DNA from: Alphaproteobacteria bacterium
GTDB lineage: Bacteria > Pseudomonadota > Alphaproteobacteria > JAUXUR01
Reading direction: 5' to 3'
Assembly: GCA_030696155.1 (NCBI GenBank)
Contig: JAUYSY010000029.1
Coordinates: 4,059-68,058 of the forward strand
DNA: 64,000 nt
Positions within the stretch are counted from its first letter, which is position 1; each line of letters begins with the position of its first letter. The notes beneath the pieces were generated by a model. The model had not been told where the DNA came from. It was given only the letters and a program-made list of their open reading frames with translations, and made no database searches. Below, one piece after another: positions 25,302 through 34,288 of this stretch. The position numbers and the translations under genes were made by a program.

Positions 25302-25378
25302 TGGCGCGCCCGAAGAGATTCGAACTCCTAGCCTTCTGATTCGTAGTCAGATGCTCTATCCAGTTGAGCTACGGGCGC
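25302..25378 (-). tRNA. tRNA-Arg (anticodon ACG)
   Basis: Reverse complement GCGCCCGTAGCTCAACTGGATAGAGCATCTGACTACGAATCAGAAGGCTAGGAGTTCGAATCTCTTCGGGCGCGCCA folds as a cloverleaf. Anticodon loop CTACGAA. Confidence 0.9.
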
Positions 25379-25474
25379 AGCGTCATTTGATTAACTCGGA
25401 AGATAGTCAACTTTCATCTAAAAAGCAAGCCTTAAATTAGTTTATTTAAGTTAGGTATCAAAACACTCAAAAAA

Positions 25475-28006
25475 TTAATGTGAAGAAGCTAGCGCATCAA
25501 CAAAAGTTTGAATGGTTCTAAGGCGTCCTGCTTCTACTGTATTGCCTGCGCTAGGGTGTTGTATATGCATAGGCAAAACCATGTCGCCAATATTAAATTT
25601 TACGCGTACGGCTTCACCAGGTGTAATATAAGCTTCTTTATCAACCAAACTTAAAAGACGTGATAAATATTTGGTCATTTTACGCTTTTTAAGTTTAGGT
25701 TTTTTGAGTTCTTCAACTAACCTATCAATTTTTATTTTTTTTTGTGCAGATTCTTGATCTTCAATTTCATCTTGGTTGAGAGGATTAGCATCCTGCTTTA
25801 ATTTTGTTGAAGGATATTTTTTCCAAGGTTCATAATCTATTTCAGAAGATAAAGATAATGTTTTTGTTGAGGTCTCTATTGGTGTTTGATTACTATCAAC
25901 AAAGCAATCATCTGGCTCTGTCAAATCAACTTGTTCATCATCAGAAAAAATAGGAATCGTATCGCCAGATGATGAATCCTCATCGTTAGGATTGATGTCG
26001 AACTTATTATTTATAGAATGCTCATATAATGATTGATGTTCTAAAATTTTTTGAGTAATTGAATGATGAAAAGCAGCGTCTTTTGATCCAAGTCGTTTTC
26101 CAATTTCAAAATAGTGATGTGCTTCAGCATAATTTGAATGTAATAATTCCATAAACCCAAGCAAAAAATATCCTTTTTTTTCATCATGTTTATTATATTT
26201 TAAATCTACAACTTTTAGTAAAACTTCTTTTACTTCGTCATATTTTAAGTCTTCTAGATAATAAATGCACAAGCTGGCATAGGGAATAAGAGCGTTATGT
26301 GAACCAAAATCAATTGCCTTTTTAAAGTAATATGCTGTTTCTTTATAATTTTTTTCTTGTAAATAAATTGACCCTAATTCTAATGCAAAAACTCCTTTTG
26401 TTTTTTCTATATTTTCGAATGGGATAGGATTAAGAAGGAGATCTTCTTCTAAAAATAATTTTATATATTTTTGAGTATGTTCATTTTTTTTATCTAATGT
26501 TTCGTGAAGCCAATCTGGATTTGATAAAATTTGGCATATAATAAATAAATTTGTGGAAGTTGGGTCTAGTTCATATGATAATAATGCCCAATTATAGGTT
26601 TCAACACAATATGAGTTGTCGTTTGTGTTTAAAAAATATATAAGACCAACAAGCGTTGCATATTGTAATAATTTTTCATGATTAGGCAAGTTGTGCATCA
26701 ATGAAAGATTAATGATTTTGTTGAAATTTGCAGCAAATGAATTGTCAATGAGGTTAAATTGTTTCTTAACAAGTCCATCAAAAAAATAACAACTTGATAT
26801 TTCGTTAATTAAATATTCAATATTATCCCTTGTTTTACATTGTTCAAACAAGGAGGTATATAAGTTTTTTAATTCTTCAGTATTTTTTTCATGTTGCCGT
26901 ATAATTTTAGACAACATGAATCCGCAATTTATATTGCCTAAACGATACCCTATCTCAGCATAATTAGCTGATTCATAATATTTTTTGCCTAACATAAAAG
27001 TTTCTGAGAGCCATTCCAAGGCGTTGACATTACCAAGACAAGCTAAATGTTGCATAGAAGTAAGATCAAAATGGATTAATGGAGGTTTGTTTTGAGGTGA
27101 AAGATCGTCCAAATGACTCACTTCATTTGTGTATAATATAGCCATTTGCAATTGAAGTTCTTCATTGTTTATTATTTCTTTATTATCTTTATAAAAACTT
27201 ATAATTTTTTGTATAGTTTTTATTAAGAATTTGTATTTTGGTTTTATATTTCCAAAATATTGAAAAAATAATGCTAATTTATCTTCAGAAATATTGCTTA
27301 TTTCTTCAATTGCTTCTAAATCTCCATAACCAACACTAAAAAAAAGTAAAGAATAATATATAAAATCAATCCCTTGAGCGAACAAAATGTCATAATTGTT
27401 TCTAATGTCTTCGTAGGTTTCTTGCAACTGATTTAAATCAATTAAAATTACGTATCGTGTTGCAAGATTTATAAAAAATGCTTGCAACGCATTAATGTTT
27501 TTTATTTTTTCGTGTGTTAAATAGGTGTTTTTATTTTTCAGTAGATCTTTTCTTAGAATTGAAAAAGCTCGTGTTGAGCCGTCATTTGATAATTTGTGAA
27601 GTGCTGTTATTGTAGACTTAATTTGATCGCCTTGTTTTGTTATAGATTTTTCTAATTTTCTTACTTCTTTTATAAGTTTTTTATTTTTTTTATCATTTAT
27701 TAAGTTTTGATATTTTTTTTCATCTTGTATTAAAGATCTATAATTTTTAGCAGGTGCTATATATTGTTTTTCAATAAAATTGCCTAAAACTGTTTTAGAA
27801 TCATAAAAAGTTTTTTTCCGAATATCCTTTGGTAAATGATCGAATTGTGCTCCTTTTGTACCTTGCTGCGTCAAAATTTGTAAAAAAGCACGTGCAATTA
27901 AATTATTATTATTCTCTACATAAGATTCTTTGAAATACTGAAAAGCTTCTTGATCATTGCCGTCCTCATAAGCATTAATGCCGTTCATTAAGGGATTTGC
28001 AAACAC
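25475..28006 (-). CDS. Large hypothetical protein with Sel1/TPR-like repeats, acidic tract and basic KKRK patch (candidate eukaryote-like effector)
   Basis: 843 aa, no signal peptide. Sel1-like units (YAEIGYRLGNINCG..., YAEAHHYFEIGKRLGSKDAAFHH...). Asn/Lys-rich. No housekeeping family recognised. Start uncertain (GTG 28006 or ATG 27988). Confidence 0.5.
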   Translation of the reverse strand: MFANPLMNGINAYEDGNDQEAFQYFKESYVENNNNLIARAFLQILTQQGTKGAQFDHLPKDIRKKTFYDSKTVLGNFIEKQYIAPAKNYRSLIQDEKKYQNLINDKKNKKLIKEVRKLEKSITKQGDQIKSTITALHKLSNDGSTRAFSILRKDLLKNKNTYLTHEKIKNINALQAFFINLATRYVILIDLNQLQETYEDIRNNYDILFAQGIDFIYYSLLFFSVGYGDLEAIEEISNISEDKLALFFQYFGNIKPKYKFLIKTIQKIISFYKDNKEIINNEELQLQMAILYTNEVSHLDDLSPQNKPPLIHFDLTSMQHLACLGNVNALEWLSETFMLGKKYYESANYAEIGYRLGNINCGFMLSKIIRQHEKNTEELKNLYTSLFEQCKTRDNIEYLINEISSCYFFDGLVKKQFNLIDNSFAANFNKIINLSLMHNLPNHEKLLQYATLVGLIYFLNTNDNSYCVETYNWALLSYELDPTSTNLFIICQILSNPDWLHETLDKKNEHTQKYIKLFLEEDLLLNPIPFENIEKTKGVFALELGSIYLQEKNYKETAYYFKKAIDFGSHNALIPYASLCIYYLEDLKYDEVKEVLLKVVDLKYNKHDEKKGYFLLGFMELLHSNYAEAHHYFEIGKRLGSKDAAFHHSITQKILEHQSLYEHSINNKFDINPNDEDSSSGDTIPIFSDDEQVDLTEPDDCFVDSNQTPIETSTKTLSLSSEIDYEPWKKYPSTKLKQDANPLNQDEIEDQESAQKKIKIDRLVEELKKPKLKKRKMTKYLSRLLSLVDKEAYITPGEAVRVKFNIGDMVLPMHIQHPSAGNTVEAGRLRTIQTFVDALASSH

Positions 28007-28149
28007 AGGCCCTACAAAAAAATAAGTAAAAACAATAAGAAAGAATCTATTATTTAGAATTTAAATCTCTATATTTAATTATAATTATTTAAAATGTACA
28101 TTATTTATTTTGTTTTGGTCAATAAAAAATTCATAAAAACTTGAATAAA

Positions 28150-28455
28150 AAATTATGTAATTTCCCAGTTTCCTACGCCCCGCGACCATATCATTACCCA
28201 TAAGTATACTAAGATATTGATAATTAATATCTTTGTTTGCCCCACCTCCTACGTCCCGCGGCTTGTCCGCGGGATCCAGAAAGTAAATAAAGAAGATCTC
28301 ATTGTTCAATTTATACAATGTTAACTTTAGGGAAGATCGTCTGGATCCTGCGATCAAGCCGCGGGACGTAGGAAGGGGGTGGTGTTTATACTTATGGATA
28401 ATGATATGGAAGCAGGGGCGTGGGAGGCGCAGATGTTAAAATTGCATTCATCTTG
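28150..28455. repeat. Family-C MITE-like element, copy 2, apparently one element nested inside another
   Basis: Inner arms cctacgtcccgcggcttgtccgcgggatcc ... ggatcctgcgatcaagccgcgggacgtagg lie inside outer arms cctacgccccgcgacca...gcaggggcgtgggaggcgcagatgttaaaatt. Confidence 0.65.
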
Positions 28456-33404: not shown

Positions 33405-33505
33405 CAGATTGAGAAAAAAAGTTTTTTAAGTTTTTTCCTTAAAAAAGCTTGAATGTAAGCTCAAATTTTGCTAAATAATGTCAGGGCGTTAAATCCCTTA
33501 TAAAA

Positions 33506-33593
33506 GCGGTCGTGGCGGAATTGGTAGACGCGCAGCGTTGAGGTCGCTGTGAGATAGCATCTCGTGGAAGTTCGAGTCTTCTCGACCGCACCA
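33506..33593 (+). tRNA. tRNA-Leu (anticodon GAG)
   Basis: Acceptor GCGGTCG/CGACCGC, anticodon stem CAGCG/CGCTG with loop TTGAGGT, long variable arm, T-arm GGAAGTTCGAGTCTTCT, CCA encoded. Confidence 0.9.
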
Positions 33594-33637
33594 TTCTCGA
33601 AGTTAAACAATCAAATTATATTTTAAGAGATTTTAAA

Positions 33638-34288
33638 GTGAAAAATTGTGTGAAGCTATTTTTATGTAGTGTTTGTTTTGCTGTTTTTTCCACCTTTGTT
33701 TTTGCTGCAACACTATCAGAAAACAATTTTGATCGCGTTTTTAATGATTCTTATAACGCATGGTTTGGTAATCCTATATATTGGAAAACTTCAGAAGATA
33801 ATAAAAATGAAAAAATATTAATGCTCGATATTTTTTTAAACGAACAAGAAATAGAATTTTTACCAAAACTATTTCCTCAAATTACAACATTAGCTATCCG
33901 TGTAGATGTAAAAAATTCTTTTTCTCATGCAGAAGAGCTTTTTTTTGGTGAGCTCGATTTGGAAGAAGATGATAATTTAAATTTTTTTGATAATAAAAAT
34001 CAATCTAAATTTACATCTATCCAAATAGAAAAATTATTAAATATATACCCATCTATTACAACATTTAAGCTTATAGATAAAAACGATATTCAATTATGGT
34101 TAAATAATTTAAAACTTCTTCAAAAATTAACGCATTTAAGTATTGAAACAGATACATTAACGAATGAACAGCTTCATAAATTGTCCAATTTAGAATTAGA
34201 ATTTTTTCGATTAACCTATACATTACCAAATACAAATATAAGAATTTTAGATAAGATGAAATGTCGAAAAGAAATAACAAAAAAATAA
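33638..34288 (+). CDS. Small secreted hypothetical protein with leucine-rich-repeat-like C-terminal half
   Basis: Signal peptide (CSVCFAVFSTFVFA). Repeated LxxLxxLxxL segments (LWLNNLKLLQKLTHLSIETDTLTNEQLHKLSNLELEFFRL). GTG start. Immediately downstream of tRNA-Leu. Confidence 0.4.
   Translation: MKNCVKLFLCSVCFAVFSTFVFAATLSENNFDRVFNDSYNAWFGNPIYWKTSEDNKNEKILMLDIFLNEQEIEFLPKLFPQITTLAIRVDVKNSFSHAEELFFGELDLEEDDNLNFFDNKNQSKFTSIQIEKLLNIYPSITTFKLIDKNDIQLWLNNLKLLQKLTHLSIETDTLTNEQLHKLSNLELEFFRLTYTLPNTNIRILDKMKCRKEITKK

Follow-up and report, generated by a model that had tools for sequence, protein, structure and literature searches.

Three fast-evolving orphan genes in a probably vertically inherited block between and beside two tRNA genes of an uncultured alphaproteobacterium

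The locus considered here raises the question of whether genes of low GC content and without recognisable relatives that lie next to tRNA genes were inserted there, or belong to an inherited gene order. It is part of a window of 64 kb (the whole stretch of DNA analysed, positions 4,059 to 68,058 of contig JAUYSY010000029.1, assembly GCA_030696155.1, from an uncultured alphaproteobacterium), in which three orphan genes, designated orfA, orfB and orfC, alternate with housekeeping genes from a tRNA-Arg gene to just past a tRNA-Leu gene; all coordinates given below are positions in this window, unless a contig of a relative is named. An earlier reading, made from the sequence alone, described the segment as a mosaic resulting from piecemeal insertion at hotspots formed by tRNA genes and miniature inverted-repeat transposable elements (MITEs), and named in advance, as the observation that would speak against it, relatives showing the same gene order with the orphans included. 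Such relatives were found, and the segment is probably a clade-specific syntenic block passed on vertically, with three single-copy, fast-evolving orphans set between housekeeping genes and two tRNA genes.

Gene order, constraint and composition of the block

The loci of relatives were recovered by protein searches followed by contig look-ups, and the comparison sequences are all metagenome-derived, as is probably the window itself. A look-up with Hsp33 yielded a 1.2-kb contig only. In all five relatives, the orphans occupy slots identical to those of the window, as far as the contigs reach:

L008 and L009 (ENA): lepA-gpt-tRNAArg-orfA-trmH-MFS-orfB-tRNALeu-orfC, with orfC partial
L006 and L011 (NCBI, GCA_030680745.1): two contigs over the locus, each with its break at the MITE region
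L010 (Logan): orfA-trmH-MFS-orfB
L012 (JGI): orfA fragment-trmH-MFS-orfB-tRNALeu-orfC-TrcR-Hsp33
L004 (Logan): gpt-tRNAArg-orfA-trmH-MFS-orfB-first 30 nt of tRNALeu, where the contig ends

Synonymous divergence (dS) and the ratio of nonsynonymous to synonymous divergence (dN/dS) were estimated pairwise by the Nei-Gojobori method. For housekeeping genes, dS relative to the window is about 0.15-0.27 in L008 and GCA_030680745.1, about 0.75-0.95 in L010 and L012, and about 1.0-1.3 in L004, whose identities to the window are 52% for orfA, 89% for trmH, 90% for the MFS transporter and 55% for orfB.

The gene order that the sequence-only reading had described, from tRNA-Arg to past tRNA-Leu, was borne out feature by feature, and is listed here together with the flanking genes:

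24820-25284, minus strand: gpt-like phosphoribosyltransferase (Pfam Pribosyltran, E=2e-13), the conserved left flank
25302-25378, minus strand: tRNA-Arg(ACG) (ARAGORN and Rfam)
25475-28006, minus strand: orfA, 843 aa from a GTG at 28006 (Pfam: sub-threshold TPR match only)
25475-28060, minus strand: orfA including the ortholog-type 5' extension, 18 codons upstream of the GTG start
28007-28586, strand not applicable: orfA-trmH spacer of 580 bp, containing a nested palindromic element
28140-28460, unstranded: composite nested MITE of about 300 bp, flanked by a 9-bp direct repeat
28587-29360, plus strand: trmH-family (SpoU) RNA methyltransferase (Pfam SpoU_methylase, E=9e-24)
29524-31098, plus strand: MFS transporter (Pfam MFS_1, E=4e-50)
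31407-33404, plus strand: orfB, 665 aa from the ATG at 31407 (669 aa from 31395), no Pfam match
32122-32334, plus strand: tandem repeat inside orfB, with two units of about 96 nt each (self-BLAST and alignment)
33506-33593, plus strand: tRNA-Leu(GAG) (ARAGORN and Rfam)
33638-34288, plus strand: orfC, 216 aa, no Pfam match
34534-35070, plus strand: TrcR (DUF1013; Pfam E=3e-51), the conserved right flank, with Hsp33 next (Pfam HSP33)

The genes among which the orphans lie are conserved in sequence and position. tRNA-Arg is found at the same place in L004, L006, L008 and L009, and tRNA-Leu in L008, L011 and L012, while the 5' end of the latter terminates contig L004. The gpt product shares 98.7-99.3% amino acid identity with its counterparts in L008 and L006, and 83% with that of L004; TrcR and Hsp33 are kept after orfC in L012, with 97% and 90.5% amino acid identity, respectively. 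The adjacency of trmH and the MFS gene is maintained in L002, L003, L004, L008, L010, L011, L012 and L093, that is, down to 76% TrmH identity. With about 7000 homologs, which are 63-100% identical among clade relatives and about 55% identical in other alphaproteobacteria, and with a dN/dS of 0.03-0.06, trmH is a native housekeeping gene. The earlier impression that the housekeeping genes of the segment look native thus holds for trmH and for the MFS gene, both conserved and of clade-typical composition.

A more distant contig, L093, whose TrmH is 76% and whose MFS protein (part of the gene is present on the contig) is 63% identical to that of the window, carries divergently upstream of trmH-MFS a gene of 319 aa, which is a homolog of the N-terminal part of orfA (about 380 residues; hhalign probability 98%, E=1.6e-13; hmmsearch 89.8 bits) and begins with a signal-peptide-like sequence. 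On its other side, this homolog is bordered by HPr, EIIA and RapZ genes, not by tRNA-Arg and gpt, and the contig has no reported tRNA. The pairing of orfA with trmH is therefore older than the present tRNA neighbourhood. In L094 (70% TrmH identity), neither an orphan nor the MFS gene is present.

Reading frames and lengths of the orphans are kept across all lineages. Their dN/dS values amount to 0.22-0.37 for orfA, 0.25-0.38 for orfB and 0.34-0.54 for orfC, compared with 0.01-0.16 for lepA, gpt, trmH, MFS, TrcR and Hsp33. The orphans are real genes under purifying selection, but under a much weaker constraint than their neighbours (typically 0.3-0.4, versus 0.01-0.07), and their proteins change about 5-30 times faster. 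At such a pace, simple searches lose homologs beyond the clade: only five homologs of orfA were retrieved from 5.8e9 proteins, the remote L093 gene being additional, and only five of orfC, whereas a HMMER scan of 1.84e9 representative proteins with orfB returned its own cluster only. These protein searches yielded no orphan homologs outside the clade, and family hidden Markov models detected no paralogs of orfA, orfB or orfC in the window or in any of the fetched loci. Scans of metagenome collections with the alignments of orfA and of its C-terminal part matched low-complexity peptide patterns, and nothing was confirmed. With orthologs at the same position in the five relatives and a dS that tracks that of its flanks, orfB appears as a vertically inherited fast evolver.

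With regard to composition, the earlier description of the segment as a mosaic stands for base content, amino acid content and evolutionary rate, but not for the insertion mechanism attached to it. The profile of GC content and codon usage is indeed non-uniform. GC is 0.24-0.31 in the orphans and 0.35-0.42 in their neighbours, and the orphans are Asn-rich, as had been pointed out, with 6-10% Asn against 1.3-4.3%. At third codon positions (GC3), the orphans reach 0.14-0.19 versus 0.21-0.32 for most housekeeping genes, and 0.19 is also measured for a Mur-ligase-like gene situated elsewhere in the window; the GC gap is larger at the first and second positions, reflecting an Asn/Lys/Ile-rich amino acid content. 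This composition is in keeping with AT mutation pressure on genes that are weakly constrained and probably weakly expressed; it is by itself no proof of a foreign origin, and is compatible with an ancient one. Four further low-GC open reading frames (ORFs) without Pfam match form a second group, away from any tRNA, at 50142-51443, 51553-52203, 53509-53943 and 54937-57465. Signal-peptide-like sequences are seen at the start of three of them, and Asn content, checked in two, is 11-14%. Such orphans are thus scattered through the genome backbone.

The palindromic element and the question of insertion

The nested family-C MITE reported for the orfA-trmH spacer was confirmed by its inverted repeats and dispersed copies. 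The inner family-C element (about 28237-28383), with an inverted repeat of 40 nt (28241-28280 / 28340-28379, 88% complementary), lies inside an outer palindromic element with an inverted repeat of 31 nt (28178-28208 / 28387-28417, 87% complementary), and the only ORF within the composite is a spurious one of 90 aa. Copies of the inner family occur at 9838-9914, 28241-28379, 36461-36588 and 53367-53482, and seven arm matches were observed, against 0.00 expected by chance. The flanking 9-bp repeat, CTTGAATAA, is found at 28140-28148 and 28452-28460. L008 is devoid of the approximately 300-bp element, and the flanks of the site are about 91-96% identical, so that it represents an empty site; the 9-bp target duplication is deduced from this single empty-site comparison. 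In GCA_030680745.1, the right half of the MITE is present and the contigs break there. Outer-type copies are found in L011 and L012; in the latter, family-C and outer-type copies lie in the MFS-orfB (3161-3318) and orfC-TrcR (6865-6920) spacers of the contig, not upstream of trmH. A 131-bp repeat between lepA and gpt (24687-24817) is shared by the window and L008, and is absent from L006. MITE insertions are thus frequent, lineage-specific and younger than the orphans, and different lineages have received them in this block independently of one another. The nested element itself is strain-specific; its insertion between the divergent starts of orfA and trmH, with a 9-bp target duplication, was a minor and recent event.

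Bacterial MITEs and palindromic repeats include the Rickettsia palindromic elements, the Neisseria Correia elements and ERIC. The present element resembles them in being short, non-coding, multi-copy and intergenic, with terminal inverted repeats, a target site duplication, an empty site in a sister strain, and nesting. Unlike known MITEs, its family is clade-specific, and the window revealed no cognate transposase. With a filled site and its empty counterpart, the locus allows a clean comparison for this new nested MITE.

A stretch of 126 bp directly 5' of trmH (28461-28586), in which a TTGACC motif occurs, shares about 96-100% identity with L008 and can still be recognised in L004. The trmH promoter probably lies in this stretch, which the MITE separates from the orfA start. 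At least five further dispersed or palindromic repeat families are present in the window, with mapped copies lying between predicted genes: copies were located at 3294-3582, 46829-47114 and 49890-50118, at 15545-15694 and 58885-59034, at 24687-24817 and 54013-54143, and at 35093-35335 and 36234-36340, and a further repeat at 6105-6267.

It is improbable that the orphans are separate, fairly recent horizontal acquisitions at tRNA genes and MITE sites. Such an origin would account for their lower GC, their richness in Asn and their somewhat atypical synonymous codon usage, for the presence of different orphans beside trmH-MFS in L002 (76% TrmH identity), and for spacers of the block that were repeatedly hit by MITEs in different lineages; moreover, three of the four tRNA neighbours are orphans, and orfC lies directly 3' of tRNA-Leu. 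However, piecemeal insertion at such hotspots is contradicted by an order that, orphans included, is identical in five relatives up to a dS of about 1.0-1.3, and a homolog of orfA is linked to trmH-MFS in L093, on a contig with no reported tRNA. The MITE, absent from L008, is younger than the orphans and hence was not their landing pad. tRNA-Arg, on the minus strand, turns its 3' end, the usual integration site, towards gpt and its 5' end towards orfA, which leaves orfC as the only orphan at a tRNA 3' end. No donor-like homologs were found outside the clade, and comparable orphans without Pfam match lie at 50-57 kb with no tRNA nearby. Pfam searches of all ORFs of at least 150 aa between 24.8 and 36.2 kb detected no integrase, transposase or relaxase, and the 17-28-nt tRNA 3' ends occur once each in the 64-kb window, allowing up to three mismatches; on both counts, the lack of an integrase and of direct repeats noted by the sequence-only reading was corroborated. 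Its view that the segment is not a single island agrees with these absences and with the interleaving of housekeeping genes. One classical tRNA-associated island extending from tRNA-Arg to tRNA-Leu is in fact extremely unlikely: like tRNA-associated and pathogenicity islands, the segment has tRNA genes at its borders and low-GC genes without assigned function inside, but it differs from them by having no integrase or other mobility gene and no att or tRNA-derived direct repeats, by the native trmH and MFS genes of clade-typical composition that it encloses, by its presence in all relatives, and by the wrong orientation of tRNA-Arg.

Several points nevertheless weigh against the block being an old and vertically inherited one. 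The relative synonymous codon usage of the orphans correlates with that of the pooled housekeeping genes at 0.73-0.79, versus about 0.9 for housekeeping genes of similar size (individual housekeeping genes range from 0.69 to 0.97), and the dS values, up to the 1.0-1.3 of the most distant relative, are rough, being Nei-Gojobori estimates for very AT-rich genes on metagenomic contigs. In L002, trmH-MFS is flanked by unrelated orphans, and the slots are therefore not immutable at depth. A scan of the genome collection with TrmH alone gave no hits. The nearest species representatives in that collection, which according to the TrmH alignment share 47-55% TrmH identity and resemble Rhodospirillales, do not carry the flanking genes of the window near trmH, except for one MFS match, and the recovered lineages comprise no outgroup with an orphan-empty site. 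Ultimately, the orphans may go back to an ancient transfer, have arisen de novo, or have diverged beyond recognition. As for their products, export was read by eye from the N-terminal sequences, and Pfam detects no Sel1, WH2 or LRR domain in the orphans even at E<=10, so that the Sel1-like, WH2-like and LRR-like labels of the earlier reading are not borne out by profile searches.

The two orphans of L002 (229 and 434 aa) were considered as diverged forms of orfA, and the comparison showed them to be unrelated to it.

On balance, vertical inheritance of the block remains the probable reading, and a horizontal insertion should not be called solely on the grounds that an orphan gene is low in GC and lies next to a tRNA. 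Because the low-GC, tRNA-adjacent orphans of this locus appear to be old, fast-evolving residents, they caution against such calls.

Divergent alleles of orfA and orfC

Over lepA, gpt, tRNA-Arg, trmH, MFS and most of orfB, the window and L008 are 95-100% identical at the nucleotide level, whereas identity is about 72% over a 2.4-kb tract covering orfA (about 25440-27868). In sliding profiles, the edges of this tract are abrupt, one lying 35 nt past the orfA stop codon (about 25440) and the other at codon 47 (about 27868). Within the pair, dS is 0.80 for orfA, versus 0.14-0.27 for the flanks. The converse is observed between the window and L006 of GCA_030680745.1, where dS is 0.04 for orfA and 0.26 for lepA, about 1 kb away. 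Furthermore, the L008 allele of orfA is closest to that of L010 (76% amino acid identity), though L010 is clearly more distant in housekeeping genes. Quartet analysis accordingly groups the window with L004 and L008 with L010 for orfA in 1000/1000 bootstraps, while trmH+MFS and orfB each group the window with L008 and L010 with L004, likewise in 1000/1000. Taken together, the raised dS, the reduced dS in the other pair, the sharp edges and the tree conflict indicate that the orfA tract is a homologous allelic replacement, i.e., a putative recombination import, rather than the product of in-place acceleration. Deeply divergent alleles exist for orfA and, to a lesser extent, for orfC, and homologous recombination within the conserved flanks has carried them from one lineage to another.

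Divergence of orfA in place, through a local rise in mutation rate or strong positive selection and with no recombination, seems quite improbable. It would be in line with the fast evolution of orfA everywhere, with a dN/dS of about 0.3, and with the fact that exported and host-facing proteins are common targets of diversifying selection. However, a dS raised 3-5 fold is not predicted by selection on the protein, the pairwise dN/dS remains below 1 and gives no sign of gene-wide positive selection, and neither the very low dS between the window and L006, nor the abrupt tract edges, nor the quartet conflict is accounted for in this way. Likewise, it is very unlikely that the mosaic is an artefact of metagenome assembly or binning, namely chimeric contigs of co-occurring strains. 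The comparison sequences do come from metagenomes, and the contigs of GCA_030680745.1 break at the locus, but the window-type allele lies between the same flanks in each of three independent assemblies (the window, L006 from NCBI and L007 from Logan), and the L008-type allele in two independent ENA assemblies (L008 and L009), which argues against chimeric contigs; in addition, the limits of the tract fall at gene boundaries, and its reading frame is uninterrupted.

A diversity-generating retroelement or phase variation was also considered as the source of the diversity, and was rejected, since the entire 2.4-kb tract is divergent and the neighbourhood holds neither a reverse transcriptase nor an invertase.

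Orthologs of orfA begin with MLNNRFFLIVFTYFF..VFA|NP, which resembles a Sec signal peptide. The ATG of this signal peptide in L008, L010, L012 and L004 corresponds to an ATT in the window (AAATGTTAAAT to AAATTCTAAAT), where the GTG at 28006, the first canonical start, coincides with the predicted cleavage site. In the orfA of GCA_030680745.1, the first 27 codons or so are swapped for unrelated sequence (L006 1-140, L007 1-30). The 5' end is hence compromised in both carriers of the window-type allele; the loss of the ATG in the window (ATG to ATT) and the replacement of the 5' end in the sister strain are minor, recent events.

orfC displays a milder version of the recombination pattern of orfA. 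Relative to L011, its nucleotide identity is 83-87%, starting right after tRNA-Leu, against 99-100% in the flanks; the protein shares 76% amino acid identity with that of GCA_030680745.1, dS is 0.32 versus 0.16-0.20 for the flanks, and pairwise distances depart from the housekeeping tree. The gene is hypervariable between strains, with positional orthologs in L008, L011 and L012. In GCA_030680745.1 (L011 5980-15979), orfC is directly followed by a 521-aa orphan, peptidase S49, EIIA-Ntr and a ribosome hibernation factor, and the same stretch continues into the GDH/SH3/methyltransferase block that occupies 57.5-64 kb of the window (57545-64000), in inverted orientation. This junction after orfC (34289-34533 in the window) is either an inversion breakpoint or a misassembly of the metagenome-assembled genome; in the former case, a recent rearrangement breakpoint would lie just after orfC in one strain.

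Diversifying or frequency-dependent selection may be what preserves the allele diversity of orfA and orfC. A more far-reaching reading, which we regard as rather doubtful, takes the three genes as a conserved host-interaction group in the core genome, in which orfA and orfC would be trans-lineage balanced polymorphisms under selection by a eukaryotic host or a predator, and orfB a new cytoskeleton-targeting effector. The alphaproteobacterium would then possibly be host-associated, and old allele classes may be shuffled between species-level lineages.

Predicted products and their known counterparts

The N-termini of orfB and orfC show, by inspection, n, h and c regions comparable to those of the orfA orthologs. 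From these sequence features, the orphan products are probably exported or secreted, and we can propose that they are surface or host-interaction (effector-like) proteins.

orfA has no match to Sel1 (PF08238); TPR_CcmH_CycH scores 18 bits versus a cut-off of 42, and TPR_1 gives E=0.095. The AlphaFold2 model (predicted local distance difference test, pLDDT, of 58) comprises an all-alpha solenoid (residues 1-666) that a disordered linker connects to a small C-terminal domain, and its best Foldseek matches are TPR/SLR solenoids (E 1e-4 to 4e-3, TM-scores 0.12-0.18). On this low-confidence model, orfA may be a helical-repeat protein of the TPR/SLR-like type. Between alleles that share 52-61% identity overall, its last 88 residues (25475-25740) reach 78-85%; they contain the motif …YITPGEAVRVKFN.GDMVLPMHIQHPSAGN..EAGRL.TIQTFVDAL; this domain has no match in Pfam or among PDB sequences. 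A HicA-like fold, suggested by a resemblance seen by eye, was discarded for the C-terminus (hhalign probability 0.2%, in a region where the model is of low confidence).

In orfB, a signal-peptide-like N-terminus is followed by a basic stretch, a poly-Pro run, two tandem units of 32 aa and conserved C-terminal motifs. The units conform to the pattern …S[IM]E[FL]QGQ[FL].KLK.AKDREL.P.K, and an LFDALKNG motif is present besides the poly-Pro run and the units that follow it. No Pfam match was obtained at E<=10, WH2 (PF02205) included, with either the whole protein or the isolated repeat units. The orfB of GCA_030680745.1 carries one unit instead of two (96 gap columns between the window and L011), and the repeat number thus varies between strains; the gain or loss of one 32-aa unit is a minor and recent, strain-level event. 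As for orfC, its model (pLDDT 56) alternates strand and helix units, as in LRR-type repeats, and its Foldseek matches, the best of which is not significant (E 0.015), mix TIM barrels and LRRs.

Hypervariable surface or effector loci that keep a fixed position and are exchanged through their flanks are known from pneumococcal pspA/pspC, Neisseria porB/tbpB, cps and O-antigen cassettes. orfA resembles them by its conserved position, flanks of 95-100% identity with an abrupt drop in identity over one gene, excess dS, a tree in conflict with that of the flanks, and a probably exported product. Unlike those loci, it represents a new family without Pfam assignment, which combines a predicted TPR/SLR-like solenoid with an unmatched conserved C-terminal domain; it belongs to an uncultured alphaproteobacterium, about five alleles have been sampled, and host or predator selection is a conjecture in its case. 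ORFan genes, including effector-like genes of host-associated bacteria, are known to be scattered through core genomes, and the three orphans are similar to them in being single-copy, AT-rich, fast-evolving, without recognisable domains and interspersed among core genes. In contrast to the effectors of host-associated bacteria, their N-termini suggest Sec-dependent export, not type III or IV signals, and an effector role is conjectural. The locus therefore presents a familiar population-genomic pattern carried by new gene families, and not a new kind of system. General understanding is left unchanged; the value of the analysis lies in a correct annotation and a list of candidates. Three new clade-restricted families of probably exported proteins are defined in an uncultured alphaproteobacterial lineage, among which orfA is the natural first candidate for a molecule interacting with a host or the environment.

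Tandem duplications are found elsewhere in the window. Two RDD-family genes with about 76% nucleotide identity lie within 21229-22096, and tandem genes for AcrB-type RND pumps (65-71% nucleotide identity) belong to an HlyD-AcrB-AcrB-OEP operon at 37949-44165. A DEAD-box helicase gene (370-2667, minus strand) contains an internal tandem array at 629-1376, with a period of about 110 nt and copies that are 72-84% identical.

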